From an uncultured delta proteobacterium (GTDB taxonomy: Bacteria > Myxococcota_A > Polyangia > Polyangiales > B10-G4), in NCBI GenBank assembly GCA_963727445.1, contig CAVSGI010000002.1:128001-192000 (forward strand): a DNA stretch of 64,000 nucleotides, written 5' to 3'. The position numbers and the translations under genes are program-made. The notes beneath the pieces were generated by a model that did no database searches, was not told where the DNA came from, and saw nothing but the letters and a program-made list of their open reading frames with translations. This document shows positions 10 to 27,077 of the stretch, in pieces (position 1 is the first letter of the stretch; the number at the start of each line of letters is the position of its first letter).

Positions 10-1461
10 GTGATGAATCGTCGGAGTTGGTGGGAGATCTGGGCGCTCGGGGCGCTCGTCGCGGCGGGCGCCTGCGGCGAGGATCGCCCTCCCATGCCGC
101 CCGTTCCCGATGGTGGGATGCGGCCCGATGGCGGCCTGGACTCCGGATCGGCGGACGCGACGCCGGCCCGGCAGGGGGACGCCGGCCCGGTCCTTCCACG
201 CGCCGATCTGACGCTCGTGCTTCCTTATGAAGGCCCGGAGCAGGAGGTGAGCCTCGCCGTCATCGCCGACGCCGCCCGCTTCGACGTCCACTTCTCGATC
301 GACACCACCGGCAGCTTCGGGGAGGAGATCGACACGATGCAGAGTGAGCTCCTGGACCGCGTGCTCCCCGGGATCCGGACCCGGATCGGCGATCTGGCGG
401 TGGGCGTCAGCCGCTTCGAGGACTTCCCTGTCGCGCCGTACGGGGGCACCGAGGACCATCCCTTCACCCTGCTGACCCCGATCACCAACTCCGAATCCAA
501 CGTGGGCGCGGCGATCGCCGCCCTCGACGATCCCCTGGGCAATGGAGGCGACGTGCCCGAGGCCACGGCCGAGGCGCTCTATCAGGTCGCCACCGGCGAA
601 GGCCTGAGCAGCGGGGGCGTTCAATGGGTGCTGCCCTTCGGCCGGCGCGCCGCGCCCGGCGGCGGCGTGCTTGGCGGCGTCGGCTTTCGCGAAGGCTCGC
701 TCCGCGCGGTGGTGCACGTGACCGACGCGCCGAGCCACGCGCCGGCCGACTACCTGCCGGACATCACGGGCGTGCACTCCCTGAGCGACGCGACCGATCG
801 CCTGCGCGAGATGAACGTCGCGGTCCTCGGCATCGCGTCGGGCCGCGTCGCCCGCCCCGACCTCGAGAGGGTGGCGATCGACACCGGCGCGGTGGTCGCC
901 CCCGTGAGCGGCGCCTGCGCCACCGGCGTCGACGGCGCGTCGAACCCCCCGGTCGATGGCGTGTGCCCGCTGGTCTTCGACATCACCCGCGACGGCACGG
1001 GCCTGTCCAACGCGATGGTGGACGCGCTCGTCGCGCTGCTCGACTCCGTGCGCTTCGACGAGGTCTACGGCGAGGCGGTGGACGACGATCTCGGCTTCGT
1101 CTCCGCGATCGAAGCGCGCTCCGCCACGGTGCCGGCAGGGACGACCGAGCCCGGCCGCGAAGATCGGCATCCCGCGGGCGACGACGTCCTCGACACCTTC
1201 GTCGACGTCCGCCCCGGCACCGGTCTCGAGCTGGTGGCGCGATTTCGAAACGACCTGCTCTCGCCCGAGGACTACGATCAGGTCTTCCGCGTCACCGTGC
1301 AGGTGCTTGGCGATGGCCTGGTGCTCGCGGAGCGGGTGGTGCGCGTGGTCGTGCCGCGCCATCGGCTCGACGCGGACGGCGGGATGGACGCCGGCGCTGA
1401 CGCTTCGGCGGATTCGGGCTCCGCGGACGCAGGCGACGGTGGTATGGGCGACTCGGGATGA
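10..1461 (+). CDS. VWA-domain lipoprotein (CglB-like family)
   Basis: Lipobox-like ALVAAGAC; MIDAS-like FSIDTTGS, GGDVPE and VHVTDAPSH motifs; DAG-rich low-complexity ends typical of Polyangia lipoproteins. Confidence 0.75.
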   Translation: MMNRRSWWEIWALGALVAAGACGEDRPPMPPVPDGGMRPDGGLDSGSADATPARQGDAGPVLPRADLTLVLPYEGPEQEVSLAVIADAARFDVHFSIDTTGSFGEEIDTMQSELLDRVLPGIRTRIGDLAVGVSRFEDFPVAPYGGTEDHPFTLLTPITNSESNVGAAIAALDDPLGNGGDVPEATAEALYQVATGEGLSSGGVQWVLPFGRRAAPGGGVLGGVGFREGSLRAVVHVTDAPSHAPADYLPDITGVHSLSDATDRLREMNVAVLGIASGRVARPDLERVAIDTGAVVAPVSGACATGVDGASNPPVDGVCPLVFDITRDGTGLSNAMVDALVALLDSVRFDEVYGEAVDDDLGFVSAIEARSATVPAGTTEPGREDRHPAGDDVLDTFVDVRPGTGLELVARFRNDLLSPEDYDQVFRVTVQVLGDGLVLAERVVRVVVPRHRLDADGGMDAGADASADSGSADAGDGGMGDSG

Positions 1462-5532: not shown

Positions 5533-6543
5533 GTGATGAAGAAGCTTTGCTTGATGCCACTCGTGTTGACCCTTTTCATGGGCTGCGGTGACGACAGCTC
5601 GCCGCCGAGCGACGGCGGGACCGACGCGACGGTGGACAGCGCGCCGCCCATGGGCACCTGCCCGGTCCCCGACGAGCAGATGGGACCCTGCTGCTACTAC
5701 GCGTCCAACGCCGAGAGCCTCGACCATCCGGCGCTGCGAGTCGCGGGCGTACAGATCACGACGCCGCCCTCCCTCGCCACGATCATCGTGACCACGCTGC
5801 TCGTCGACTCCCTCGACCGCGAGCTCTTCAACTGGCTCATCGACACCGAGATCAGCGGCACCGACGCCAACATCACCACCGGGTACGGCATCAAGAACGC
5901 CGACGGCACCTTCTCCTTCACCATGGGCACCGCCCCCGGGCCGGGCGACGCCAACCGCTGGGACCCGATCTCCATCTCCGGGTCGATCGCGGGAGAGGTC
6001 GTGAGCGCCCCGGTGGTGAGCGAGACCCTCACGGTGCCCGTGCTCGATCAGGACGGGATGAACGTCACCCTCGAGCTGCCGCTCCGGAACATGACCATCG
6101 AGATGGCGACCCTCTCCGAGGATCGCAGCTGCATCGGGCAGCGCCTCCCCGGCAACCGTTGGACCTCGACCGATGGCCTGCTCACCGCCTTCATCACGGT
6201 CGAGGACGCCGACGCGGGCATCCTCGACGTGCCGGACGCGATGATCCACCAGTCGCTCTGCACCTTCATCGCCAACATGCCGGCCACCGCGGGTGACTGC
6301 ACGATGCCGACGGACTGCCCGATGGGCTACACGTGCAACACCGACTCCAAGTGCGCGCGGCCGGACAACTGCCTCGACACCCCGCAGAACGACGACACCT
6401 GGTCCGCCAAGCCCGACGCCCTCTGCGACACCGCGGGCTGCACCCAGGACCCCGGCGACGGCAGCGTCTGCGACCCCGCGACCACCTGCAACGCCTGGTT
6501 CATCAGCGCCGGATTTGCCGCCCAGGGCGTCACGATCAACTGA
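5533..6543 (+). CDS. Cys-rich lipoprotein of unknown function
   Basis: GGAGGA RBS; lipobox LFMGC; strong GC3 codon bias; followed by a terminator. Confidence 0.8.
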   Translation: MMKKLCLMPLVLTLFMGCGDDSSPPSDGGTDATVDSAPPMGTCPVPDEQMGPCCYYASNAESLDHPALRVAGVQITTPPSLATIIVTTLLVDSLDRELFNWLIDTEISGTDANITTGYGIKNADGTFSFTMGTAPGPGDANRWDPISISGSIAGEVVSAPVVSETLTVPVLDQDGMNVTLELPLRNMTIEMATLSEDRSCIGQRLPGNRWTSTDGLLTAFITVEDADAGILDVPDAMIHQSLCTFIANMPATAGDCTMPTDCPMGYTCNTDSKCARPDNCLDTPQNDDTWSAKPDALCDTAGCTQDPGDGSVCDPATTCNAWFISAGFAAQGVTIN

Positions 6544-6568
6544 ATTCGACCATAGTCTCGGGACGATG

Positions 6569-6600
6569 AAGCCCCGCTCGCGTCGCGGGCGGGGCTTTCC
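6569..6600 (+). terminator. Rho-independent terminator-like hairpin
   Basis: AAGCCCCGCTCGC-GTC-GCGGGCGGGGCTT stem followed by a short T tract, 25 bp after the 6543 stop. Confidence 0.65.
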
Positions 6601-6706
6601 CGCATTCGAATCTCGTGTAAAGCTCCTGAGGTTCGGTTGGTTTGGGTGTGCACGAGGCCCCGCCGGGGATTCCGGCGTGAGGACCTACGGGCTCGGGAGC
6701 ACGGGT

Positions 6707-9700
6707 ATGCGCTTCGTTAGGCAGAATCTCTGGTCTTTTCTTCTTCCTCTCCTCGTCTTCGTCGTTCTGGCGTGTGGAGGGGGCAGCTGCGGGGGCTGCG
6801 CCGGCTGCGGGGTCGCGCCGATCCCGGGCGGCTATCCGATCGCCGATCGCGTCAGCAACTCGGCGCAGGTTCGCCTGACCGATGACGGGATCACGTTCAT
6901 CGAAGACAACTTTGATTCGATCGTGATGAATTTCCTGCCGGACGGCCTGGACTTCCCCGTCCCCCGCAGCACGGTGTCGGGTCCGCTGGGAACGAGCGCA
7001 ACCATCTGCGCGGACGACAACTGTATCGCGCACCTGGAGATTCAGAGCGTCGAGCTGACCCCGACAGCCCCGAACACCCTTCACGCGCACCTGCGCCTGA
7101 TCATGGACAGCCGCAACCTCTCCGGCGCGCGCGCTCGGTGGCGCATCGGTCTGCCCATCAGTGACTCCAACCTCGACGTCGACACGCGGCCGGGCTCGCG
7201 TATGTATGTCGGGTTCGCGGCCGATATCCGCTTCCTCGCAGAGACCGAAGCGGCCCGCGCGGGCTACACCTGGGTCAAGGTCGAGAACGCCGATCTCGTG
7301 TCCGGCGAGGGCATCGAAGACGCAGACCTCGATTTCTCCGGCGGCATCTTGTCGTGGGTCCTGAACGCGCTCAAGGGCGTCCTCATCGACCAGCTCGTCG
7401 CCCAGGTGACGGGCCTCTTGGACTCCGCCCTCGGCGACGCCCTCTGCACGCAGCAGGGCGAGTATGGGTGTCCCACCGGCACGGTCGCGGCCGGACCGGA
7501 TCCGACGGACGTCTGCGAGTACACCGCCGGCGGCCGCTGCGTCCCGATACTCCTCGGCACCGACGGCCAGGGCGATCTCGGTGAGGCGTTCCTCGGAAGC
7601 ATCTCTCCCGGCACTCACGCCCCGGGCCAGTTCCTGCTCGCGTCGGGCGGCGACGGCGAGGCGGTCAACGGGGGCATGAGCCTCTTCATGTACGGCGGCT
7701 ATCGCTCCACCGACCTCACCTTCATGACCTCGCCCGCGCACAACCCGTGCGTACCCGTGGTCGATCCGCCGCCCCTTCCGACCATCCCGCGGGTCGACAC
7801 CTTCCGGGGCAACACCATCCCCGGCGGCGGCAGCGCCCACGTGGGCATCGGCCTGTCGGAGTCCTTCCTGAACCACGCGGGCTACGGGATGTTCGACTCG
7901 GGCCTTCTGTGCATCGGCGCGGGGACGCGGCTGAGCCAGCAGCTCTCGACGGGGCTGCTCTCGGCGCTGATCACCTCGCTCCGCGGCGTGACCTTCCCGG
8001 AGACCAACGCTCCGGTGGCGATCGCGCTCCGGCCCCAGACCCCGCCGACCTTCGAGGTGGGCGCGGGCGACGGCACCGAGCCGCTCCTCACCGTCGCGCT
8101 CGATGGTGTGCAGGTCGACTTCTACGTCTGGTCCACCGAGCGATACATCCGCTTCATGACCTACGCGGCGGATCTCTCCATCCCGATCAACCTCACGGTC
8201 ACCGACGGCGAGATCGTGCCGGAGATCGTCGAGGTCGGCGCGTCCAACAGCGTCGTGACCAACTCGGAGCTGTTGAGCGAAGACCCGATGCTCCTCGCCT
8301 CGCTGATCGAGACGGTCATCAGCGAGTTCGCGTCGATGGCCACCGGCGGCCTGAGCCCCTTCGCGCTGCCGGACCTGATGGGCCTGGCGCTCGAGGTGCC
8401 CGACGGCGGCGTGACCGGCGTCGACGACGCGCGGTGAGGAGTTCGTCGGCATCTTCGCCAATCTCGCGCTGGCGTCGGGCTCGGCCTACTCGGCCAGCGT
8501 CGACACCCGCGCCACCCTCGATCCCATCCAGATCGATCCCGACGTCCTCGACCTCGCCACCTTCGGCCAGGGCGAGCACCCCTGGGTGCGCGTCGTCGCG
8601 GACGCGGACGGCCCGAGCGGCGCCGGCTACGAGTACAGCTGGCGCGTCAACGGCAAGCCGTGGAGCCCCTGGACCACCGACCGCATCCTCACGATCCAGG
8701 ACCCGGCCTTCCTGCTCCAGGCACGTCACGAGCTCGAGGTGCGGGCGCGCATGGCGGGTCAGCCCCTCACGGTCGATCCGACGCCGGCGTGGTTCGAGGT
8801 GCTGGTGGACGTCCTTCCGCCCCTGGTCGAGGTGGACCGGAGCGGCCGTGGCGTGAGCATCACGGCCAGTGACGTCCTGACGGAGCGCGAGGACCTCGAG
8901 CTCCGCTACCGCATCGACGGCGAAGGCTGGACCGAGTGGCAGAAGCTGCCGGACGACGCCTTCGTCCCCCTCCCCTACGACGACGCGAGCATGGACGTCG
9001 AAGTGCGCGACGAGGCGGGCAACGTGGGCGGCGCGAGCGCGGCGCTCATCCGCGGCCTTCCCAACCCGGACGCCGCCGCGGGCTGTGGCTGCTCGACCTT
9101 CGACGAGCGCACCTCGCCCTTCTCCGGCCTCGCCTTCCTCATGGCCTTCGCCGCGTTCCTCCTGCGCCGGAGGTCTCAAAGACGACCCTCGAAGCGGCTC
9201 GGCAAGAAGGCGAAGTCGGCCGCCAAGTGGCTCTCGATCCTGATCCTCCTGTCCATCGTCGGCTGTGATTGCGGGGGCGGCGACAACCCCGACGGCGGCA
9301 CGGACGGCATGATGGGCTGCTCCTCGTGCGTCGCAGCGGTCCCCCCGGCCACCGCCGGCGGCATCTGCTGCGAAGCCACGAACATGTGCATCTCCTACGA
9401 CCTGATCGAGCTCTGCGATCCGGGCTTTCAGTGCTCCAGCGGCGACCAGGTGGCGGTGGACGAGTCCTGCAACCTCACCTGCAACGACTGCGTGCGCTCG
9501 CCCGCCCTCAACCCCGGCCTTCTGGCGACACACCTCGACATGCACGTGAACGACGACGGCAGCGCGGTGCTCTCGGGTTACAGCCCGGGCGACGCGCCGG
9601 CCCGCGTCTACGGCGACCTGGTCATCGGCACCGCGCCGGCCGGGCCCGGCGACATGGTGCAGTGGGAGATCGTCGACGGCGCCCCCGACATGCCCATCAC

Positions 9701-10826
9701 CAACGACCCCGACGGCTATCGCGGCGGTGTGTCCGCGCCCGGCCCCGACGTCGGCCGCTGGACCAGCATCGCCGAAGCGGGCGGCACCTATTACGTGAGC
9801 TACTACGATCGCGACAACGGTGACCTCAAGCTCGCCTACGGCACCCCCGGCACCTGGACCGTCATCGTGGTGGACGACACAGGCGACAGCGGGCGCTACT
9901 CGTCGATCGTGATGACGCCGGACGGCGCCCCCGCCATCGCGTACCTGCAGATCACGCCCGGGGACGGCGGCGCCATCGAGAGCCGCGTGAAGGTCGCCGT
10001 CGCGGACAACGGCAGCCCCACGGGCCCGCCCGACTTCTTGAGCACCGAGATCGCCGGTGGTCCCATGGACTGTCGCCCGGCGTTCTGCGACGACACCACG
10101 ACCTGCACCGAGGGCGGGCTCTGCGTCACCGACAGCGGGGACTGCGGCGGCAGCTGCGCGATGGATCAGATCTGCGTCTCCGGGACCTGTGAGACCGCGC
10201 TACCCGACAACTACGTCGAGGACATGCCGCCGGCTCTGGGGATGTACAACTCGCTGGTCGCGACCGACTCCGGCCTCGCCCTCGTCTACTACGACCGGTC
10301 GAACGGCAACCTGTGGGGCGCCGCCTACGACGGCAGCGCCTGGGCTGCGCCCTTCCTGATCGACGGCTACGGCGCGGGCACCCTCGGCGTGGGCGACTCG
10401 GGCCTGGCGGCGAGCCTCTTCGTCGACGCGGCCGGCGTGTGGCACGTGAGCTACGTGGACGGCGCCGAGGAGAACCTCCGCTACGCCCGCATCGAGGGCG
10501 GCATGGTCACCGCCGAGACCGTCGACAACGGCGCGACCGACGGCACCGATCCCAATCCGGACGGCCGGCACATCGTGGGCGACGACAGCTCCATCGTGGT
10601 GACCGAGGGCGGCGAGATCCGCATCGCCTATCAGGACGCCACCTCACGCCGCGCCATGCTGGCCCGCCGGCCGGCGAGCGGAGGCGAGTGGACGATCTCG
10701 ATCTTCGACGAGACCGACAGCACCGGTTTCTGGATCGAGCAGAGTCTGCTCGGAACGACCAGCGTGATCGCGACCTACTACCGCAGCGCATCCGACGGCG
10801 GCACGCGCCTCTTCAACGTGGACTGA
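6707..10826 (+). CDS. Large surface lipoprotein (possible BPI/LBP-like N-terminal region, internal MYXO-CTERM signal, second lipoprotein-like domain); +1 frameshift near 8430
   Basis: ORFs 6707-8437 and 8586-10826 join as ...GVDDA/GEEFVGIFANL if one base near 8430 is removed; N-terminal lipobox VVLAC; GCGCS-TM-RRR at 9081-9175. Confidence 0.75.
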
Positions 10827-10845: not shown

Positions 10846-11091
10846 CTACCAGGTGCGCGCGCGGACCGGAACGTCTTCGCTGCTCTTCGCGACGTAGTCG
10901 CGGCGCGTCTCGCTGACGAGCGCCAGGAGCTCGTCCTTGTGGACGATGCCCGCGTCGAGGAGCGCGGCCATGTAGCCGTCGGCGTAGCCGTGGGCTCGGG
11001 AGAGCCGCGCGTACGCGGTGCCGCCGAAGCGCGCCTTCAGAACCTGTTCGAGAAGCTCGGCGACCGTGGCCTTGAGCTGTTCCTTTTCCAT
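10846..11091 (-). CDS. Small hypothetical protein (MEKEQLKATVAELL...)
   Basis: GGAGGGTGAG upstream of ATG 11091; typical codon bias; helical RAHGYADGYM motif. Confidence 0.7.
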   Translation of the reverse strand: MEKEQLKATVAELLEQVLKARFGGTAYARLSRAHGYADGYMAALLDAGIVHKDELLALVSETRRDYVAKSSEDVPVRARTW

Positions 11092-11226
11092 CTCACCCTC
11101 CAGGGTCCGACCATCACGAAGCCGCAGCTTCGGCGTCGGCAAGTCCGCTCGCCCGCGGACCAGGACGGGCATACGCGGAGCACCCGTCGGCGGTCAAAAA
11201 AGCGGACGCAACCGACGACCCGCCGC

Positions 11227-11389
11227 CGCAGGCGATGGGGACGGTCTACACTTTTCAACTTTCGCCTCGGCCGCGCATGCCGATCGCAGGCGATGGGGAC
11301 GGTCTACACTTTTCAACTTTCGCCTCGGCCGCGCATGCCGATCGCACCCGGGCGTGCGTGGCGAAAGTTGAAAAGTGTAGACCGTCCCC
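11227..11389. repeat. REPIN/MITE-like element: two direct copies and one inverted copy of GGGGACGGTCTACACTTTTCAACTTTCGC
   Basis: Direct copies at 11237-11265 and 11295-11323 (part of an exact 58-bp tandem duplication); inverted copy at 11361-11389. Confidence 0.9.
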
Positions 11390-11716
11390 GTTAGGGTGTT
11401 GGGGCGAAGCCGCCGAAGCCCCATCACCAAAAATGATCGGCGCCCGACGAAGGCAGAATTGCACTCATCGGACGCCGACCAAGGGGTTCAGGGATTTGCT
11501 TGGCAGGGAGGTCGCGCGATCTCGACGCCGCGCTCGCTCTTGGTTCTTCATTGAGCATCCTTCGTGCCATCGAACACGGACGAAAAAGCGCAACGATGGC
11601 GTCGCTGCCCCCTCCCCGAGCGGCTTCTACAGCAGCCAATTCGGCAGTAGCCGTGGCTGCTGAAGCCGCCTCCACTGACGGACCGAGCTCGTCGAAGCCA
11701 TGGGGCCTCCGCCCGC

Positions 11717-13878: not shown

Positions 13879-13977
13879 GAAAACCGCCTGATTCTAGTCG
13901 GCCCGGCCCGAGAATACGACGTCCGCACGACCTTTGTCGTATCCTCGCCGACGCCCCCGGGGCATCTCACGGACCAG

Positions 13978-15184
13978 ATGCGCTATCTCTTCGCGGATTC
14001 GGAGCCGTTCCCGCTCGAATACGATTTCCTGGCCACGCTCAGGGGATTTCTCGAGTGCGGGGCCACCTGCCTGGGTGCGGTGGCGGCCATCGACGCCCAG
14101 GAGACGCGCGTTCGGGTCGAGAGGGCCAAAGCCGAGAAGTATCAGGCCGCCCTCGACCGCTTCGAGACCGATGCGATGAGCGGCCTGGCGGCGGCGCGCT
14201 CGGCGAGCACCCTCAGCGAGGCGATCACCAGCGCCGCCGATCAGTCGGTGGCGTCGGTGCGGGGGATCGTCGCGAGCGCCAAGCAATCGGTGGAGGACGA
14301 GCTCCGGGGGGTCGAGCGGACGGCGCGGAGCCGCATCGACGGCCAGGGCGAGACGATTCGCCACGCCCTGCAGCGCTTCCTCCTGAAGGAGCGGCTGGAG
14401 GTGGAGGACACCTTCTTCGAGCTGGTCCTCGAAAACGAGGGGTACCTGGTCTCCGCCACCTGCCGGATGCCGGAGGGGCTGACGGTCCAGTATCACCTCG
14501 ACGCGCGTCGTCGCTCCGAATGGCGGAAGGCGCGCAAGATCAGCGAGATCGTCGGCGAGCTCGAGCTGCAGATCGGAATGAAGAAGAAGCTCTTCGGCAA
14601 GCAGCTCACCCCCGACATCGTGAAGGTGGGCGACTGGTCGGTGGTGGCGGCCACGCTGGGGACGACCCGCGCATCGATCACGCTGCGCAAACGGCCGGAC
14701 AGCGACAAGGACACGACCATCCTCTCGCTGCGGCGCACCGCGCAAGGCGTCGCGGGGGACGTGCGCAAGGGCGTCGAGCGGGGACAGGAGCGCGAGTCGT
14801 CCATTCCCACCGCCGTCGAGGACGCCGGCAAGCTGGCCGAGCTCTGGGACGCCCTCGACCGCGAGTGCCTCGGCACCCTCGCCCACCGCGAGTCGGTCGG
14901 CGACATCCGTCTCGACGGAGAGGACGTGCTCGAGGGCCGCCAGGTGGTCGAGTTCCTCAAGCGTTACGTCGACATGTACAAGCCGATCGTCACGGAGATC
15001 GCGCAGCGCAGCCCCAGCGCGAAGGAGCTCTCGCTGAAGATCGAGCACGACGACGGTCACCGCGAGGAGATTCTATCTGCGCCGCGAGGAGCTCGCCGAC
15101 GTGGTCGCCCCCCTCGGCGACGAAGAGATGAAGGTCTTCGCCCCGCTGGACTTCTTTCCCGAGATCGACATCGAGCTGCTCTAG
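13978..15184 (+). CDS. Hypothetical protein with N-terminal coiled coil; +1 frameshift near 15070
   Basis: Strong coding bias from ATG 13978; removing one A at ~15070 gives ...HREEFYLRREELADVVAPLG...IELL* ending at TAG 15184. Confidence 0.7.
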
Positions 15185-15749: not shown

Positions 15750-16275
15750 TCAACGCGCGGGCGCGAGCCGCGCTTCGATGGCCGCCGCAGTGAGACGACG
15801 CCACGCCTCGCGATCTGCCGGCGCGATCCAATCCCGACCGATGCGCGACCAGTCGGGATCCTCCGGGTCGAGCCCCAGATGCTCGATGTACGGCGGCTCG
15901 ACGATCAGAAACTGTCGCCGGTACCCGAGGAGGTACCCGCCGTGCTCACGCCGGATGTCGCGCGCCTCCTCGTAGGACGCGCTCCAGACGTTCCAGTACG
16001 CCCCGCCGTGCTCGCGGTGCATGAGCTCACCGCGGTCCGGCTCGTCCTCGCCCGCGAGGACGGCCCGCGCATGCGGCCATCCCCGAAAGCCGGCCGCGCG
16101 CGCGAGCGCCGCGAGACAATGACGTCTCTTCACCGACGACGCGACGGCCGCTTCGTCGAGCCCCGCGAGCTCCTCGAGCCCGCGCAAGCGTCCGAATCGC
16201 CGCCGCGTCCCCGCTACGCGCGCGCTTGTGCATGAGGCGCGCGCGCGCCTTCATATCTTTGACGAGATCCACCAT
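15750..16275 (-). CDS. Hypothetical protein with N-terminal K.RAR...HCL..LAR..GF..W module; +1 frameshift near 16191
   Basis: GGAG RBS then ATG 16275 (MVDLVKDMKARARLMHKR); removing one base at ~16191 joins it to RLRGLEEL...HCLAALARAAGFRGWPHA...YLLGYRRQF...LGLDPEDPDW. Confidence 0.7.
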
Positions 16276-16435
16276 GGCTGCTCCAATCCCGGCCGGCTCC
16301 CGCTCCCTGAGGCCGAGGGGCAAACGCATGTGGCGAAGTCCCCATCGAATCGATTCGTCTCAGGCCCTGGAAGACCGTCGCGGGGTGAGGTGTCTTTCGG
16401 CGGAGAGGCGCCCCCGAGCACCTCGAAGGCGCACC
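16276..16435 (-). ncRNA. Candidate structured cis-regulatory leader RNA
   Basis: Non-coding ~160 nt between a TTGCCT -35-like box (16455-16460) and the ATG, with several complementary segments (see findings). Not a family I can name. Confidence 0.4.
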
Positions 16436-16642
16436 ATGAGCATCCTGGAAGCGGAGGCAAGGGCGAAAAGTCGTATGTCGATACGGCAGATAGGTCGATC
16501 GAATATTGATCGAGGGAACGACTAGCTGCGCGTCACTCCGTTACTAAGAGAGTCTCGTTGCGCGCTCCCACTCGTGTAGTAATGACTTCACATCCCAAAA
16601 TACGGTGCGGTCCCGGGGGGCCCCCAACAAGCACTCATCTCC

Positions 16643-17773
16643 ATGAAATTCCGAACGTTTCGAACCCTGCTGCTCGTGTGGCTCTCCCTCCTTCTCTTCG
16701 CTTGTCAGACGCTGCAGGCCGAAGATGAGGAGGAGGCCCATCACCCGATCGTGCTCACCAGCCCGGCGGTGCAGGACGTCCCCACGAGCAAGGGCTACGT
16801 CTGCCTGGTCCACTCGCGCCGGCACATCGAGCTCCGTGCCCTGGACGCTGGGTACCTGTTGGAGATCCCGGTTCAGGAGGGTCAAACCGTGCAGGAGGGC
16901 CAGCGGCTCTTCAAGCTCCTGCCCGTCGTCTACCGAGCTCGGCTGGACGCTGACAGGGCCGAGCTCCACCTCGCCGAGATCCGCCTCCGGAACACCCAGC
17001 AGCTCTTCGAGCAGAACGTGGTCTCCGATCAGGAGGTCGCGCTGGCGCGGGCCGAGCGAGACCGGGCGAAGGCGAAGGTGGATCTCGCTGCGGCCGAGTT
17101 CGGTTTCACGAACATCATCGCCCCCTTCGACGGGATCATCGACCGCCAGTACGTGCAGCAGGGGAGCCTCGTCGAAGAAGGGGACATGCTCACGACGATC
17201 TCCGACAACAGCGTGATGTGGGTCTACTTCAACGTTCCCGAGGCCGACTACCTCCATTTCAAGTCGATCCCGAACGCGCACGATCCGGAGAACCCCCAGC
17301 AGCTCCACCTCCCTGGTGCGACCATCCAGCTCCGACTGGCGAACGGCGAGATCTTCGACCACGACGCCGGCGACACCCTCACGATCGAGTCCGACTTCGA
17401 CAACGAGACGGGCAACATCAAGTTCCGCGCGGACTTCCCGAATCCCGAGCTCCTGCTGCGTTACGGTCAGACTGGCACGCTACTGATCAACGAAACGCTG
17501 CACGACGCGCTGGTCATCCCACAGCGGGCGACCTTCGAGATTCTCGACAGGCAGTACGTCTACGTCGTCGGTGACGACGGCGTAGCGCACCAGCGCGAGA
17601 TTACCGTCGCGCACGAGTTGGACGATGTCTTCGTCATCGGCGAAGGGTTGGATGCCGACGACAAGTTCGTCCTCGAGGGAGTCCGTCAGGTGCGCGAGGG
17701 GGAGCACCTGGAGAACGCCGAGCTCCGCACTCCGGAGGAAGCTCTGAGCGACCTGAAATACCACGCCGAATAG
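16643..17773 (+). CDS. RND efflux periplasmic adaptor (MFP) lipoprotein
   Basis: Lipobox LLFAC; lipoyl-like VQEGQTVQEGQ, IIAPFDGII, ETGNIKFRADFPNP and LVIPQRA motifs. Confidence 0.93.
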   Translation: MKFRTFRTLLLVWLSLLLFACQTLQAEDEEEAHHPIVLTSPAVQDVPTSKGYVCLVHSRRHIELRALDAGYLLEIPVQEGQTVQEGQRLFKLLPVVYRARLDADRAELHLAEIRLRNTQQLFEQNVVSDQEVALARAERDRAKAKVDLAAAEFGFTNIIAPFDGIIDRQYVQQGSLVEEGDMLTTISDNSVMWVYFNVPEADYLHFKSIPNAHDPENPQQLHLPGATIQLRLANGEIFDHDAGDTLTIESDFDNETGNIKFRADFPNPELLLRYGQTGTLLINETLHDALVIPQRATFEILDRQYVYVVGDDGVAHQREITVAHELDDVFVIGEGLDADDKFVLEGVRQVREGEHLENAELRTPEEALSDLKYHAE

Positions 17774-17823: not shown

Positions 17824-20800
17824 ATGTTCACGAAGATCCTTCACCGGCCAGCTCTCGCCCTAGTCCTCTCGATCATCGTCGTATTCCTCGGTGGCCTGGG
17901 GATCACGACCCTTCCGATCGCCCAGTTCCCCAGCGTCGCGCCGCCGACCGTGTACGTGTCCATCGCGTATCCGGGCGCCAGCGCCAAGGTCCTGGTCAAC
18001 TCCGTCCTGATCCCGCTCGAGCAGTCGATCAACGGCGTCCAGAACATGCGCTACATGGTCTCCTCTGCCACGAGCGCAGGTGAGGCGACGATCATCATCT
18101 ACTTCGAGCCGGGCACGGACCCGAGCATCAACGTCGTCAACGTGCAGAACCGCGTGAACATCATGCGGAGCCGCTTGCCTCCACTGGTGGTGCGTGAAGG
18201 CATCCTGGTCAGCAAGGTCGTGCCGAGCATGTTGATGTACTTGAACCTGTACAGCACGGACCCGAACACCGACCAGAAGGACTTATTCAACTACGCCAAC
18301 GTCTACGTCATGCCCGTGATCAAACGTATCCAGGGCATGGGGATCCCGCGAAATCTCGGCAACCGAAATTTCGCGATGCGCATCTGGTTGAATCCCGACC
18401 GCATGCGGGCCTACGACGTCTCCGTCGACGACGTCATGGAGGCCGTGGCGGAACAGAGCATCATCGGCTCGCCCGGCCGCCTCGGTCAGGCCACGGGCAT
18501 GACCTCGCAGTCGAAGGAGTACGTGCTCACCTACATCGGCCGCTACAACGAGCCGGAGCAGTACGCGAACATCATCCTGAAGGCCAAGCCGAACGGGGAG
18601 ATCCTGCGCCTCCGAGACGTCTGCGTGCCTCCCCCGAGGCCCGAGGGCGCGGGCGAGATGCACGAGCAGCACGAGGGCGTCGAGCTCGGCTCGGAGTTCT
18701 TCGACCTCTACTCCGACGTCAACGGCTATCCCGCGGCCTCCATGGTCCTCAAGCAGGCGCCCGGTTCCAACGCGGCCGAGATCATCGACCAGGTCAAGGA
18801 GACGCTCGAGGAGCTGAAGCAGTCGTTCCCCCCGGGGATGGACTACGAGATCGCCTACGACGTCTCCCGCTTCGTCGACGCCTCCATCGAGCAGGTGCTG
18901 CACACCCTGCTCGAGGCGTTCATCCTGGTGTCGCTCGTCGTCTACATGTTCCTGGGCGACCTGCGCTCCACGCTCATCCCGACGCTCGCGGTGCCGGTGT
19001 CCCTCATCGGCAGCTTCTTCATCCTGCAGTTGATGGGCTTCTCCATCAACCTGATCACCCTCTTCGCGATGGTCCTGGCCATCGGCGTCGTCGTCGACGA
19101 CGCGATCGTCGTCGTCGAAGCCGTCCACGCCAAGATGGCGGAGACGCACTTATCTCCCTATCGCGCGACCATGGAGGTCCTTCACGAGATCAGCGGCGCG
19201 ATCATCGCGATCACGCTGGTGATGACCTCGGTGTTCGTCCCCATCACCTTCGTCCCCGGCCCGGTCGGCGTCTTCTACCGCCAGTTCGGCGTCACCATGG
19301 CCTCGACGATCATCCTCTCCGGCATCGTCGCCCTCACGCTCACGCCGGTGCTCTGCGCGATGATCCTCAAGCCGCACAGCGCGAGCCACGGGCACGAAGA
19401 GAAGAAGAGCATTCGCGACCGGCTCACGGGGCTGGGCGCCAAGACCCTCGTCATCTACGCCCTCGTGGGGCTGCCGGTCCTGGCCGGACTCGTCTACATC
19501 GCCTACGAGCTCTGGGGGCCCATCGGCTTCTTGCTGATCCTCGTGCCCTTCGTGCAGGGGCCCTTCAGCCGCGGCGTCGACAAGGTCACCAACTGGTACG
19601 CGGGCGGGATCCTGCAGGCCCATCGTCACCCGCCGGCTCCTGACCATCGGTGTGATCGCGGCTTTCGCGGTCGGCATCGTCGCCACGAACTCGATCCTGC
19701 CGAGCGGTTTCATCCCCGGCGAGGACCAGGGCATCATCTACGCCGTTCTACAGACGCCTCCCGGCTCGACCCTCGAGTACACGAACGCCAAGTCTCAGGA
19801 GCTCGAGCGGATCGCCAAGGAGATCGACGGCGTCACCAGCGTCACCTCGGTGGCGGGATACGAGGTTCTGACCGAGGGGCGCGGCTCGAACGCGGGCACC
19901 GCCATCATCAACCTGGAAGACTGGTCCGAGCGCGACGTCACTGCGAAGGAGATCATCGAGGAGCTCGAAGAGCGAACGCGAGAGATGACCAACATCAAGC
20001 TCGAGTTCTTCGAACCGCCGGCGATCCCCGGGTTCGGCGCGGCGGGCGGTCTCTCCTTGCGCGTGCTCGACCAGACCCAGTCGAGCACGGCCGACTACCA
20101 GCGGCTCGGAGAGATCACCGAGGAGTTCATGGCCGAGCTGCGCGAGCGCGAAGAGGTGGGCAGCCTGTTCACCTTCTACGCCGCCGACTACCCGCAGTAC
20201 GAGCTGATCATCAACAACGATGTGGCCATGCAGAAGGGTGTGTCGATCGAGCGGGCCCTGAACAATCTCAACATCCTCATCGGCAGCACGTACGAGCAGG
20301 GCTTCATCCGCTTCAACAAGTTCTACAAGGTCTACGTCCAGGCGTGGCCTGAGTTCCGGCGAATGCCCGAGGACCTCGACAACCTGTTCATCCCCAACGA
20401 GGCCGGGGAGATGGTGCCCTACTCGTCCTTCATGGAGATCCACAAGACGCAGGGCCTGAACGAGATCACCCGCTACAATCTCTACCCCTCTGCCGCCATC
20501 CAGCTCGTTCCGGCTGCCGGCTTCTCGACCGGTCAGGCCATCGATGCGGTGCGCGAGGTTGCCGAGGCGACGCTGCCTCGCGGATACGCGCTCGGCTGGG
20601 AGGGTCTGTCCTGGGACGAGTCGAGGAAGGGCAACGCCGCCCTCTACATCTTCCTGGTCGTCGTCGTGTTCGTGTACCTGGTGCTCGTCGCCCAGTACGA
20701 GAGCTTCCTGATCCCGCTGGCCGTCGTCCTGTCGCTGCCGGTCGGGATCTTCGGCTCGTTCTTCTTCCTACAAATGGTGGGATTGGCCAACGACGTCTGG

Positions 20801-21265
20801 GCCCAGTTAGGTCTGATCATGTTGGTCGGCCTCTTGGGGAAGAACGCGATCCTGATCGTGGAATTCGCGGTCCAGCGGCGAAACGAAGGCGCCTCCCTCA
20901 AGGACGCGGCCATCGAGGGCGGCAGACTCCGCTTCCGGCCCATCCAGATGACCTCCTTCGCCTTCGTCGCCGGTCTGATCCCGCTCGTCATCGCCCACGG
21001 CGCAGGCGCCATCGGCAACCGCACCATCGGCGTCACCGGCGTCGGCGGCATGCTCCTCGGCACCGTGATCGGCGTCATCGCCATCCCCGGCCTCTACTAC
21101 CTCTTCGCTCGCATCTCCGACGGGCGCGAGCTGCTGCGCGACGAAACGGAAGTGCCGCTCAGCGAGCAACCCGAAGAGCATTCCGAGATCCACGCGGTCG
21201 AGGACGGCGAACACGCGTCGCTTCACGAGCCACCGCTGGATTCCGAGCCACCCGAAGACACGTAG
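17824..21265 (+). CDS. HAE1-family RND permease, copy 1; +1 frameshift near 19614
   Basis: LPIAQFPSVAPP, AIGVVVDDAIVVVE, KNAILIVEFA and RFRPIQMTS motifs; alignment with copy 2 (GGGATCCTCAGGCCC vs GGGATCCTGCAGGCCC) locates the extra base. Confidence 0.92.
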
Positions 21266-21458: not shown

Positions 21459-21500
21459 CTCGAACGCACGACGTGATTGTATCGATCGAGCGATCGACCC

Positions 21501-24500
21501 ATGTTTACGAAAATTCTCCACCGACCAGCCCTCGCGCTGGTCCTGTCGATCGTCACCGTGTTTCTCGGGGGGCTCGGGATCGCGACCCTCCCGATCGCGC
21601 AGTTCCCCAGCGTCGCGCCGCCGACCGTGTACGTGTCCATCGCGTATCCCGGCGCCAGCGCCAACGTCCTGGTCGACTCGGTCTTGATCCCGCTCGAGCA
21701 GTCGATCAACGGCGTCCAGAACATGCGTTACATGGTCTCCGACGCCACGAGCGCCGGGGAGGCGACGATCCGGATCTACTTCGAGCCGGGTACGGATCCG
21801 AGCATCAACGTCGTCAACGTCCAGAACCGCGTGAACATCATGCTGAGCCGCCTTCCTCCGCTGGTGGTGCGCGAAGGCATCCTGGTCAGCAAGGTCGTGC
21901 CGAGCATGTTGATGTACCTCAACATCTTCAGCACCGACCCCGATACCGACCAGAAGGACCTGTTCAACTACGCCAACGTCTACGTCATGCCCGTGATCAA
22001 ACGTATCCAGGGCATGGGGATCCCGCGAAATCTCGGCAACCGAAATTTCGCGATGCGCATCTGGTTGAACCCCGAGCGCATGCGGGCCTACGACATCTCC
22101 GTCGAAGACGTGATGGACGCGGTGGCGGAGCAGAGCATCATCGGCTCACCCGGCCGCCTCGGTCAGGCCACGGGCATGACCTCGCAGTCGAAGGAGTACG
22201 TGCTCACCTACATCGGCCGCTACAACGAGCCGGAGCAGTACGCGAACATCATCCTGAAGGCGACGCCGAGCGGCGAGATCCTTCGGCTCAGAGACGTCTG
22301 CGTGCCTCCGCCCGCGCCCGAAGGGCAGGAAGACGACCCCGCCAATCAGCACGAAGGCGTCGAGCTCGGCTCGGAGTTCTTCGACATCTACTCCGACGTC
22401 GACGGCTACCCCGCGGCATCAATCGTCCTCAAGCAGGCGCCCGGTTCCAACGCGGCCGAGATCATCGACCAGGTCAAGGAGACGCTCGAGGAGCTGAAGC
22501 AGTCGTTCCCCCCGGGGATGGACTACGAGATCGCCTACGACGTCTCCCGCTTCGTCGACGCCTCCATCGAGCAGGTGCTCCACACCCTGCTCGAGGCGTT
22601 CATCCTGGTGTCGCTCGTCGTCTACATGTTCTTGGGCGACTTGCGCTCCACGCTCATCCCGACGCTCGCGGTCCCGGTGTCGTTGATCGGCAGCTTCTTC
22701 ATCCTGCAGTTGATGGGCTTCTCCATCAACCTGATCACCCTCTTCGCGATGGTCCTGGCCATCGGCGTCGTCGTCGACGACGCGATCGTCGTCGTGGAAG
22801 CCGTCCACGCCAAGATGGCGGAGACGCACTTATCTCCCTATCGCGCGACCATGGAGGTCCTTCACGAGATCAGCGGCGCGATCATCGCGATCACGCTGGT
22901 GATGACCTCGGTGTTCGTCCCCATCACCTTCGTCCCCGGCCCGGTCGGCGTCTTCTACCGCCAGTTCGGCGTCACCATGGCCTCGACGATCATCCTCTCC
23001 GGCATCGTCGCCCTCACGCTCACGCCGGTGCTCTGCGCGATGATCCTCAAGCCGCACAGCGCGAGCCACGAGCACGACAAGGCCGGCAAGAAGAGCATTC
23101 GCGACCGGATTCGGGCCATGGATACCAGGACCCGCGTGGTGTACGTCCTGTTGGGGGCACCGGTTCTCGCGGGGCTCACCTACATCGCCTACGAGCTCTG
23201 GGGACCGATCGGCTTTTTGCTGATCCTCGTGCCGTTCGTGCAGGGGCCCTTCAGCCGGAGCGTCGACAAGGTCACCAACTGGTATGCGGGCGGGATCCTC
23301 AGGCCCATCGTCACCCGCCGGGTCCTGACCGTCGCGGTGATCGCGGCGTTCGCCTTCGGCATCGTCGCCACGAACACCATCCTGCCGAGCGGTTTCATCC
23401 CCGGTGAGGACCAGGGCATCATCTACGCCGTTCTACAGACGCCTCCCGGCTCGACCCTCGAGTACACGAACGCCAAGTCCCAGGAGCTCGAGCGGATCGC
23501 CAAGGAGATCCAGGGGGTCACCAGCGTCACCTCGGTGGCGGGATACGAGGTTCTGACCGAGGGGCGCGGTTCGAACGCGGGTACGGCGATCATCAATCTC
23601 AGGGATTGGTCCGAGCGCGAGCACACCGCCAAGGAGATCATCGAAGAGCTCGAAGAACGAACGAGCGTGATGACCAACATCAAGCTCGAATTCTTCGAAC
23701 CGCCGGCGATCCCCGGTTTCGGCGCCGCGGGCGGTCTCTCCTTGCGCGTGCTCGACCAGACCCAGTCGAGCACGGCGGACTACCAACGGCTCGGAGAGAT
23801 CACCGAGGAGTTCATGGAGGCGCTCGGCGAGCGCGAAGAGGTGGGCAGCCAGTTCACCTTCTACGCCGCGGACTACCCGCAGTACGAGCTACTCATCAAC
23901 CCGGACATGGCCTACCAGAAGGGGGTGTCGGTCGAGAAGGCCCTCGAAAACCTCAACATCCTCATCGGCAGCACCTACGAGCAGGGCTTCATCCGCTTCA
24001 ACAAGTTCTACAAGGTCTACGTCCAGGCGTGGCCGCAGTTCCGGCGAATGCCCGACGACCTGAACAACCTGTTCATCCCCAACGAGGCCGGACAGATGGT
24101 CCCCTACTCGGCCTTCATGGATATCCAGAAGACGCAGGGCCTGAACGAGATCACCCGCTACAACCTCTACCCCTCTGCCGCCATCCAGCTCGTTCCGGCT
24201 GCCGGCTTCTCGACCGGTCAGGCGATTCAAGCGGTGGAAGAGGTCGCCCGGGCGACGCTGCCCCGCGGATACGCGCTCGGCTGGGAGGGTCTGTCCTGGG
24301 ACGAGTCGAGGAAGGGCAACGCAGCCCTCTACATCTTCCTGATCGTCGTCATCTTCGTCTATCTGGTGCTCGTCGCGCAGTACGAGAGCTTCCTGATCCC
24401 GCTGGCCGTCATCCTGTCGCTGCCCGTCGGCATCTTCGGCTCGTTCTTCTTCTTGCAACTGGCGGGACTGGCCAACGACGTCTGGGCCCAGTTGGGTCTG

Positions 24501-24947
24501 ATCATGTTGGTCGGCCTCTTGGGGAAGAACGCGATCCTGATCGTGGAATTCGCGGTCCAGCGGCGAAACGAGGGCGCCTCCCTCAAGGACGCGGCCATCG
24601 AGGGCGGCAGACTCCGCTTCCGGCCCATCCAGATGACCTCCTTCGCCTTCGTCGCCGGTCTGATCCCGCTCGTCATCGCCCACGGCGCGGGCGCCATCGG
24701 CAACCGCACCATCGGCGTCACGGGTGTCGGTGGCATGCTCCTCGGCACCGTGATCGGCGTCGTCGCCATCCCCGGCCTCTACTACCTCTTCGCTCGGCTC
24801 TCCGACGGGCGCGAGCTGCTCCGCGACGAAACGGACACGCCTCTGAGCGAGGTGCCGGAAGAGCATCACCCGCTCGCCGCCCGGGCCGACCCCGAACATG
24901 CGACGCACTCCGAGCCGCCTCCGGATTCCGAGCCGCCTGAAGTGTGA
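21501..24947 (+). CDS. HAE1-family RND permease, copy 2 (intact)
   Basis: Same motifs as copy 1 and highly similar to it along the full length. Confidence 0.95.
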   Translation: MFTKILHRPALALVLSIVTVFLGGLGIATLPIAQFPSVAPPTVYVSIAYPGASANVLVDSVLIPLEQSINGVQNMRYMVSDATSAGEATIRIYFEPGTDPSINVVNVQNRVNIMLSRLPPLVVREGILVSKVVPSMLMYLNIFSTDPDTDQKDLFNYANVYVMPVIKRIQGMGIPRNLGNRNFAMRIWLNPERMRAYDISVEDVMDAVAEQSIIGSPGRLGQATGMTSQSKEYVLTYIGRYNEPEQYANIILKATPSGEILRLRDVCVPPPAPEGQEDDPANQHEGVELGSEFFDIYSDVDGYPAASIVLKQAPGSNAAEIIDQVKETLEELKQSFPPGMDYEIAYDVSRFVDASIEQVLHTLLEAFILVSLVVYMFLGDLRSTLIPTLAVPVSLIGSFFILQLMGFSINLITLFAMVLAIGVVVDDAIVVVEAVHAKMAETHLSPYRATMEVLHEISGAIIAITLVMTSVFVPITFVPGPVGVFYRQFGVTMASTIILSGIVALTLTPVLCAMILKPHSASHEHDKAGKKSIRDRIRAMDTRTRVVYVLLGAPVLAGLTYIAYELWGPIGFLLILVPFVQGPFSRSVDKVTNWYAGGILRPIVTRRVLTVAVIAAFAFGIVATNTILPSGFIPGEDQGIIYAVLQTPPGSTLEYTNAKSQELERIAKEIQGVTSVTSVAGYEVLTEGRGSNAGTAIINLRDWSEREHTAKEIIEELEERTSVMTNIKLEFFEPPAIPGFGAAGGLSLRVLDQTQSSTADYQRLGEITEEFMEALGEREEVGSQFTFYAADYPQYELLINPDMAYQKGVSVEKALENLNILIGSTYEQGFIRFNKFYKVYVQAWPQFRRMPDDLNNLFIPNEAGQMVPYSAFMDIQKTQGLNEITRYNLYPSAAIQLVPAAGFSTGQAIQAVEEVARATLPRGYALGWEGLSWDESRKGNAALYIFLIVVIFVYLVLVAQYESFLIPLAVILSLPVGIFGSFFFLQLAGLANDVWAQLGLIMLVGLLGKNAILIVEFAVQRRNEGASLKDAAIEGGRLRFRPIQMTSFAFVAGLIPLVIAHGAGAIGNRTIGVTGVGGMLLGTVIGVVAIPGLYYLFARLSDGRELLRDETDTPLSEVPEEHHPLAARADPEHATHSEPPPDSEPPEV

Positions 24948-26987: not shown

Positions 26988-27077
26988 GCCGGGGTGGCGG
27001 AATTGGCAGACGCAGGCGACTTAAAATCGCCCGTGGGACTTTCCCACGTGTGGGTTCGAAACCCGCCCCCGGCACCA
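26988..27077 (+). tRNA. tRNA-Leu(UAA)
   Basis: Acceptor GCCGGGG/CCCCGGC, D-arm GCGGAATTGGCAGACGC, anticodon arm GGCGA-CTTAAAA-TCGCC, long variable arm, T-loop TTCGAAA, discriminator A and encoded CCA. Confidence 0.97.

Follow-up and report, generated by a model that had tools for sequence, protein, structure and literature searches.

The window, the whole 64,000-nt stretch of DNA analyzed here, carries on its minus strand a small gene with a leader of approximately 125 nt in front of it, divergent from an RND efflux operon. The genes and protein domains concerned are:

ATG 16275 to 15750, minus strand: open reading frame of the leader gene, in two frames
16060..16275, minus strand: N-terminal helical module of approximately 70 aa, K.RAR.L...RRHCL...AR..GF.GW, predicted to bind RNA
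15750..16059, minus strand: C-terminal alpha/beta domain, N.WSA.Y.EA...GGYLL.Y...LGLDP.DPDW..IG.DW
16643-17773, divergent from the leader gene: membrane-fusion gene
17824-21265 and 21477-24947, plus strand: tandem RND efflux genes, 91.5% identical
26988-27074, plus strand: tRNA with a long variable arm and anticodon loop UAA

A first-pass annotation made from the letters alone had described the protein correctly, and translation of the window gives it in two adjoining frames, the N-terminal half (MVDLVKDMKARARLMHK...) in one and the remainder (...RRHCLAALARAAGFRGWPHA) in the next. The split is caused by an extra base near 16195, inside the N-terminal module, whilst homologues of the gene encode intact proteins of approximately 172 aa. 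This base is absent from a public contig approximately 98% identical over 16130-16305 (one contig, depth 2.6), and the first RND gene (17824-21265) is itself split by a lone single-base gap near 19614 relative to its paralogue; the extra base is therefore probably an assembly error rather than the mark of a pseudogene. Further ORF pairs on the plus strand (6293-10826 and 13934-15131) also look like single genes broken by frameshifts, one of them with a weak MYXO-CTERM match, which suggests indel errors in the assembly. In the intergenic stretch at approximately 11018-11464 the same short peptides recur in overlapping ORF translations on both strands, pointing to direct and inverted DNA repeats. 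The closest named homologues of the window protein are in Deltaproteobacteria/Myxococcota records, Sandaracinaceae included, which together with the nearby MYXO-CTERM match makes a myxobacterial host probable. A search of the genome to which the window belongs (86% complete) gave neither another module gene nor a further strong copy of the leader.

In its predicted fold the leader opens with an H-type pseudoknot; an AAAG linker follows, containing a mini-hairpin, and a kiss of 5 bp connects the core with the loop of a 3' hairpin. In the window the promoter and predicted elements are:

16433..16460, minus strand: likely sigma-70-type promoter, -35 TTGCCT at 16460-16455 and weak -10 CATGGT at 16438-16433
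16407..16422, minus strand: hairpin P1, GGTGC 16422-16418 with GCGCC 16411-16407 around a 6-nt loop
16381..16416, minus strand: pseudoknot PK1, loop CGGGG 16416-16412 with CCCCG 16385-16381
16386..16399, minus strand: conserved linker CGAAA, mini-hairpin P2 (G16394-C16387, A16393-T16388) and the single A16386
16299..16404, minus strand: long-range kiss PK2, TCCGC 16404-16400 with GCGGG 16303-16299 in the loop of P3
16325..16380, minus strand: variable insert, gapped and unconserved in alignment A2 (see below), containing the CCTGAG and the palindrome of the first-pass annotation
16273..16330, minus strand: 3' hairpin P3, CTCGGCC 16317-16311 with GGCCGGG 16294-16288

The leader RNA likely starts at P1, since a sigma-70-like promoter (TT[GT]V-16..18-YANNNT) ending 7-10 nt before P1 was present at 35 of 74 homologous loci, against a shuffled mean of 1.06. 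The window promoter ends 10 nt before P1; a strict promoter scan of the window gave no match.

Homologous loci were fetched as the best 80 of 214 genomic loci, and a loose pattern was found no more than 330 nt upstream in 78 of these 80; four matches were spurious, leaving 74, and a covariance model added L014, L038 and L071, placing the leader at 77/80. At L014 it lies 1 kb upstream with a kinase gene in between, L038 has an extended N-terminus and L071 is cut by the contig end. The leaderless loci (L001, L044 and L072) are also without an intact module start. In 88 of 94 sources the covariance model gave a single match at each locus. Alignment A2 (67 rows: 66 loci plus the window) was made with MAFFT, blind to structure, with exclusion of the long-insert loci L007, L010, L019, L041, L045 and L066, the short variants L047 and L057, and L001, L014, L038, L044, L071 and L072. 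In A2, 86.4% of cells were paired, with 78 two-sided changes and a covariation score of 0.186, each reached in 0 of 500 shuffles; slid controls were 39-52% paired, a comparison in which the structure is favored because it was read from the same sequences. P1 was 92.5% paired with compensation at 2 pairs, PK1 98.5% and PK2 90.7% paired with two-sided changes at 3 pairs each, and P2 94.8% paired, its G-C pair being invariant and its second pair showing 23 two-sided changes in the 67 rows. P3 was only 58.5% paired in A2 because this region is raggedly aligned. RNAalifold unaided recovered PK1 only, and the window leader folded by itself does not stand out from shuffled sequences (z -0.24, with 82 of 200 as good). 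A GGA, the triplet that CsrA/Rsm targets carry at the SD and in a hairpin loop, is found before PK2 in most family leaders but is replaced in L036, L050, L055, L065, L069, L079 and most of the sister leaders described below. The first-pass annotation had proposed a search of homologous upstream regions for conservation and covariation, and both were found (77/80 loci; 0/500 shuffles).

That annotation had also proposed a structured cis-acting leader with pseudoknots, ending at the ribosome-binding site. The leader is indeed conserved and covarying, but its conserved fold differs from the pairings listed there, which were:

16432-16418, minus strand: hairpin a
GGGGGCG 16415-16409 with TGCCCCT 16322-16316, minus strand: pairing b
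CCTGAG 16364-16359 with CTCAGG 16311-16306, minus strand: pairing c
16357-16346, minus strand: palindrome d
GAGGTG 16424-16419 with CACCTC 16392-16387, minus strand: pairing e

All of these strings, together with GGAG at 16284-16281 and TTGCCT at 16460-16455, occur on the minus strand where the annotation had put them. As structures, pairings b, c and d together were 61% paired (52/500 shuffles as high; 87/500 for the covariation score) and pairing e 56% paired (58/500) in the 67-row alignment. The pairings of the annotation thus did no better than shuffles, and a, c, d and e in particular are unsupported. Pairings c and d are located in the variable insert, and hairpin a probably begins upstream of the transcription start, judging from promoter positions at the homologous loci. 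Pairing b survived in part: its pyrimidine tract is conserved and 3 of its pairs are formed in 60-61 of 67 rows, but there is almost no compensation. This tract is read here as the anti-Shine-Dalgarno (anti-SD) strand, and pairing b may be an alternative pairing.

In the predicted lower stem of P3, the pyrimidine tract and the bases upstream of it pair with the SD sequence GGAG (16284-16281) and the ATG (16275-16273). Folding of the last 62 nt with RNAfold, in 104 of 107 non-redundant leaders (three being without an SD call), gave a mean SD pairing probability of 0.75 versus 0.54 for shuffled sequences and a higher value in 88 of the 104, with kin counted as if independent. The structure predicted in this way is an extended hairpin that covers the SD and in many cases the AUG too; both the base-paired fold and the occlusion of SD and AUG are predictions. 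Burial of the translation start would also be expected of a sensor of temperature or ribosome status that works without protein, whether thermometer or translation-coupled switch, with pairing b providing the alternative partner for the anti-SD strand. Such a sensor is considered very unlikely, as it would leave unexplained both the restriction of the leader to module-bearing genes and the conserved tertiary core, and no conserved upstream ORF is visible in A2. In the short variants (L047:2298-2374, L057:2294-2374, L253 and L262) a local hairpin seems to take the place of the long-range kiss. For L047, L057 and L253 the predicted partner of the SD is the 3' strand of PK1, so that the folded core might free the SD and the sign of control could be reversed there. 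The L047 locus, from a record labelled Bordetella, closely resembles acidobacterial L057 and its label may be wrong.

The window protein belongs to a family with 282 homologues and 684 cluster representatives. Its C-terminal domain had no Pfam, NCBIfam or PDB sequence match, and no function was named by family, PDB-sequence or Atlas searches, the sole named Atlas row (Glyoxalase_8 at 0.82) being a lead only. PF20066 (Glyoxalase_8) scored 11.6 bits on the main frame of the window gene, below the curated cut-off of 23.7, and weakly matched 19 of 122 homologues (best E 0.0011). No nuclease or toxin family rose above noise in Pfam searches of the 122 members, and no ribosomal-protein match for the family was found in Pfam, NCBIfam or PDB. 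An AlphaFold (AF2) model of an intact homologue (pLDDT 97) is helical in its N-terminal region, the remainder being a small alpha/beta unit. Fold searches gave no clear match, with a best Z of 3.2 for the whole model and 4.3 for the module alone, a result that is not proof of a new fold. Eight rows of the whole-model search (Z 2.5-2.9), which from chain size we take to be RNA-polymerase omega/Rpo6/RPB6, were absent from the module-only list and this lead was dropped.

The mean net charge of the module is +3.6 versus -1.4 for the rest of the protein (107 homologues), and at six positions of the module at least 82% of the 38 aligned rows have K or R. In a search of 201 alphaproteobacterial genomes, a module HMM built from the first 72 residues matched the N-termini of ankyrin, DUF1835, PhyH and VOC proteins, the same search also giving weak rows that were non-module genes. 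Comparison of the three kinds of N-terminus by hhalign shows them to be homologous (99.0, 96.1 and 97.2), the window module scoring 99.0 against the ankyrin/DUF1835-type module and a probability of 96.1 (E 3e-9) against the PF20066 N-terminus; the likeness to glyoxalase-superfamily and ankyrin proteins that the first-pass annotation had suggested is thus supported. In five family proteins (L089, L093, L142, L173 and L174) the middle module helices are deleted and the first helix and the RRH...GF..W helix remain, as in PF20066, which marks the minimal module.

Upstream of 11 module-bearing genes of the ankyrin, DUF1835, PhyH and VOC kinds, the leader elements recur in unchanged order but their stems are re-written, as recognized mostly by eye. 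P1 is wholly re-written in the ankyrin and DUF1835 leaders, PK2 in relatives reads GGTCCAT/ATGGACC, GCCTGC/GCAGGC or ACTCAC/GTGAGT, and P2 is 3-6 bp in sister leaders. Covariance model R1 was weak on the ankyrin/DUF1835 leaders (12-17 bits, 4 of 11 listed), so a strict descriptor was used instead. It matched 5/11 discovery loci, a sixth (L253) as the short form, and 72/107 family leaders, missing 6/11 and 35/107 respectively; controls gave 3/214 shuffles and 6/300 upstream regions of the own genome. Genomes of Acidobacteriota (61) and Gammaproteobacteria (250) then supplied a held-out set of 26 new loci, from which two rows already known and one internal repeat had been left out; the unchanged descriptor matched 19 of them, comprising 6/6 family genes and 13/20 genes with other C-termini. 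Held-out C-termini (18 of 26 scanned) were ankyrin, LRR, methyltransferase, DUF6624 and DUF1835; four related methyltransferases are among the matches, which are therefore not all independent. Among the seven misses one was without upstream DNA and one had a wrong start, whilst L281 and L282 fit by eye. The other three misses are module genes L270 and L276, which have no leader by eye, and L271. Upstream of an ankyrin gene on the minus strand of L271 lies a structured leader of different appearance, possibly a fourth subclass, in which a hairpin like P3 is retained and has GCGGAC in its loop. Genes of the own genome with similar C-terminal domains and without the module gave 0/11 matches, a small set of 8 methyltransferase-like and 3 Lon-like genes with no ankyrin gene.

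PF20066-type genes, with 15 matches in 151 genomes, also have a sister leader. In an alignment of 13, excluding L226 (leader further upstream) and L235 (no module, and no leader by eye), it was 83.5% paired with 43 two-sided changes (0/500 shuffles). The C-termini of these genes are Glyoxalase_8, VOC, Lon-N and ClpX zinc finger. A third version of the leader precedes all seven PRK05973 genes found in 301 genomes and was 89.6% paired (4/500 shuffles), a weak result from 7 rows only. In VOC proteins the leader class matches the module, being type II in L236 and L238 and short type I in L253 and L262.

When metagenomes were searched with the exact RNA pattern at least 120 stretches were found, and among the matches listed with at least 250 nt downstream, 106 of 110 precede a member of the window-gene family. 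Of the remaining four, L133 has a truncated module, L154 an oxidoreductase and L190 half a leader, whilst L177 is a chance match without P1. The L154 leader (L154:1191-2360) is complete and stands before an NADP-dependent oxidoreductase without the module. No exact-pattern match was found in viral contigs. Nothing in Rfam 15 covers the leader, either in the window at the gathering threshold or in sets of 12, 19, 20 and 7 loci at E<=1 or 2, in keeping with the failure of the first-pass annotation to name a riboswitch; the Rfam matches listed were tRNAs, sRNAs outside leaders or rows below threshold. Two of these outside leaders are sRNA-Xcc1, above the cut-off at L030:829-913 (minus strand), and SorX, just below it at L313:1293-1358 (plus strand). 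The family is patchy, being found in 3/201 genomes of a sample of its own phylum and its leader in 5/101, one of them weak, and homologous loci have no conserved gene neighbors beyond close kin. Patchy spread (3/201) without conserved neighbors might indicate a selfish or catalytic element of no regulatory value, and P1 with its loop pseudoknot recalls the core of the pistol self-cleaving ribozyme. It is extremely improbable that the leader is of this kind, given that no Rfam ribozyme was matched, that the second pairing falls in a hairpin loop, that the element always spans promoter to start codon and that viral contigs gave no exact-pattern match.

Three Sorangium genomes each carry three leader copies, the first before a family gene, the second before a fusion of the family protein with a kinase (APH) and the third an orphan. 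The fusion is intact in two of these genomes (L307 and L310) and in the third (L218) the family part, with the module, is deleted in-frame. At L014 the family protein follows an APH gene under one leader. This association with APH kinases is a possible hint at the role of the C-terminal domain. The orphan leader is intact in all three genomes, with a carotenoid oxygenase next (L217) or a six-codon stub (L308 and L309), and could be a relic, a decoy or a regulon member. Its retention before differing downstream DNA, together with the one-to-one tie of a pseudoknotted RNA to a protein module, would suit an RNA that acts on the protein, whole or as a processed piece, as a bound cofactor or inhibitor gating the fused domain in the manner of the pseudoknot antitoxin of type III systems. 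This is quite improbable: there is one copy per locus and no repeat array, the leader always ends on an SD and start codon with an anti-SD strand, and no nuclease or toxin family was matched.

Intact leaders before the module-less L154 and L217 also bear on the question of whether the leader is an undescribed riboswitch for a small molecule or ion, with the module riding along and doing another job, such as that of a proteolysis or localization tag. Compact A-rich double pseudoknots are typical of metabolite aptamers too, and the nested pseudoknots, the A-rich linker and the clear predicted translational expression platform over the SD are as a riboswitch would have them, whilst fusion of the module to Lon-N and ClpX zinc-finger domains hints at proteolysis. 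However, nearly all stems are re-written with few fixed bases across subclasses, as is more readily expected where a protein recognizes the shape of the RNA than where a pocket binds a ligand, and the downstream domains are without evident common substrate. Moreover, 106/110 listed RNA-pattern matches stay with one module-bearing family, and since there are no conserved neighbors no shared pathway points to a metabolite. A riboswitch is accordingly judged unlikely; were it true, this would be a new multi-phylum riboswitch class.

The leader is conserved and covarying, reaches from close to a promoter as far as the start codon, and follows the module across unrelated C-termini. The annotation's suggestion that the basic module binds the RNA receives strong, though indirect, support from the recurrence of the leader architecture before other module genes. 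An RNA that retains its shape through changes of sequence and accompanies a single basic module is most simply explained by binding of that module, although leader and module are adjacent and their co-inheritance is explicable by linkage alone. Leaders before the module-less genes at L154 (oxidoreductase), L217 (carotenoid oxygenase) and L218 (module deleted) count against it, as do the module genes missed by the descriptor. On balance the module probably binds its own leader and represses translation, the two forming a portable autoregulatory cassette. For this cassette we infer RNA binding by the module, a repressive sign and a sensor role of the C-terminal domain. By attaching to the predicted double pseudoknot of the mRNA that encodes it, the basic helical module would keep the predicted hairpin over the ribosome-binding site closed, so that translation of the gene would fall as the protein accumulates; since the core kisses the loop of the predicted SD/AUG-burying hairpin, binding of the module would lock translation off. 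The C-terminal domain (alpha/beta here; ankyrin, VOC, methyltransferase or ATPase elsewhere) may tune binding on meeting a ligand or partner, and promoter, leader and module would constitute one 5' cassette of approximately 350 bp grafted onto many genes. It is also quite possible, if more tentative, that these represent a widespread and hitherto undescribed class of RNA-level one-component regulators, in which a plug-in of approximately 350 bp (promoter, double-pseudoknot operator and an RNA-binding module with no clear fold match) exists as at least three co-evolved RNA/module subclasses and the C-terminal sensor releases its own mRNA. Ankyrin, VOC, methyltransferase, dioxygenase, kinase, ATPase and protease-adaptor domains would then be under self-control.

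No description of the leader or of its pairing with the module was found in full-text literature searches, including the portions of PMC3895269 and PMC7297116 covered. Ankyrin and glyoxalase go unmentioned in the main-text passages covered of PMC5737381 and PMC11109978, whose supplements, with hundreds of motifs, may bear on novelty. The parts of the PMC2864571 supplement consulted had no matching gene terms and three incidental string matches in flanks, those of the PMC8040213 supplement no sequence strings and unrelated glyoxalase rows, and one small supplementary file of PMC8632094 nothing relevant. The proposed cassette would give a job to a common unnamed module labelled 'glyoxalase superfamily protein', 'ankyrin repeat protein' or 'DNA helicase PRK05973', and the leaders would represent a complex RNA superfamily absent from Rfam 15 and distributed over Myxococcota, Acidobacteriota, Alpha- and Gammaproteobacteria and Deinococcota. 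Several co-evolved RNA/module pairs could act as orthogonal translational switches.

Among the closest known systems are PF20066 Glyoxalase_8 proteins (N-terminal approximately 55 aa) and the N-terminus of PRK05973, which have a homologous helical module and sister leaders; PRK05973 weakly matches a PF20066 protein, and the window protein differs from PF20066 proteins in its C-terminal domain. The PF20066 family description mentions no RNA role. Type III toxin-antitoxin systems (ToxIN) also have a pseudoknot RNA upstream of a protein gene, in tandem repeats and with a ToxN/CptN/TenpN toxin, whereas the window leader is single copy without repeats, includes the translation start and has no ToxN-type match. 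Pseudoknot riboswitches and the pistol ribozyme likewise combine an H-type pseudoknot, a 6-nt loop and an A-rich linker, but in the window leader the helix order is different, Rfam gives no match and the tie is to a module rather than a pathway.

Ribosomal-protein leaders (S6:S18 and L31) are similarly structured 5' UTRs before the gene of a basic protein, and S15 and S4 have pseudoknot operators under autogenous control. At the window locus too a structured 5' UTR abuts the start codon of the putative binder, as in autoregulated protein-binding leaders, and feedback is predicted, but the gene is non-ribosomal and no Rfam leader was matched. The putative binder here is a detachable module on many unrelated proteins, whereas that of ribosomal leaders is one protein mimicking an rRNA site. 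On the portion of PMC11109978 consulted, the window leader fits its definition of a protein binding candidate. In the ANTAR system a small helical domain on varied partners acts with a cognate RNA, and the same pattern is seen here with RNA binding predicted; the portions consulted of PMC3369931, PMC7496416 and 10.1101/660928 describe translational repression over start sites by ANTAR in actinobacteria. Pfam searches of 122 members (E<=0.1) gave matches to 21 families, none of them ANTAR; on the question of an ANTAR-like fold, the fold search with the module had a best Z of 4.3 and no clear match. ANTAR RNA, as described in the parts of these sources covered, consists of tandem hexaloop hairpins and is spread across a regulon, whereas window-type RNA is a predicted P1/PK1/P2/PK2/P3 double pseudoknot found almost only before the module's own gene. 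The predicted system of leader and module belongs to neither family, yet its mode of action would resemble that of autogenous leaders or of ANTAR with its RNAs.
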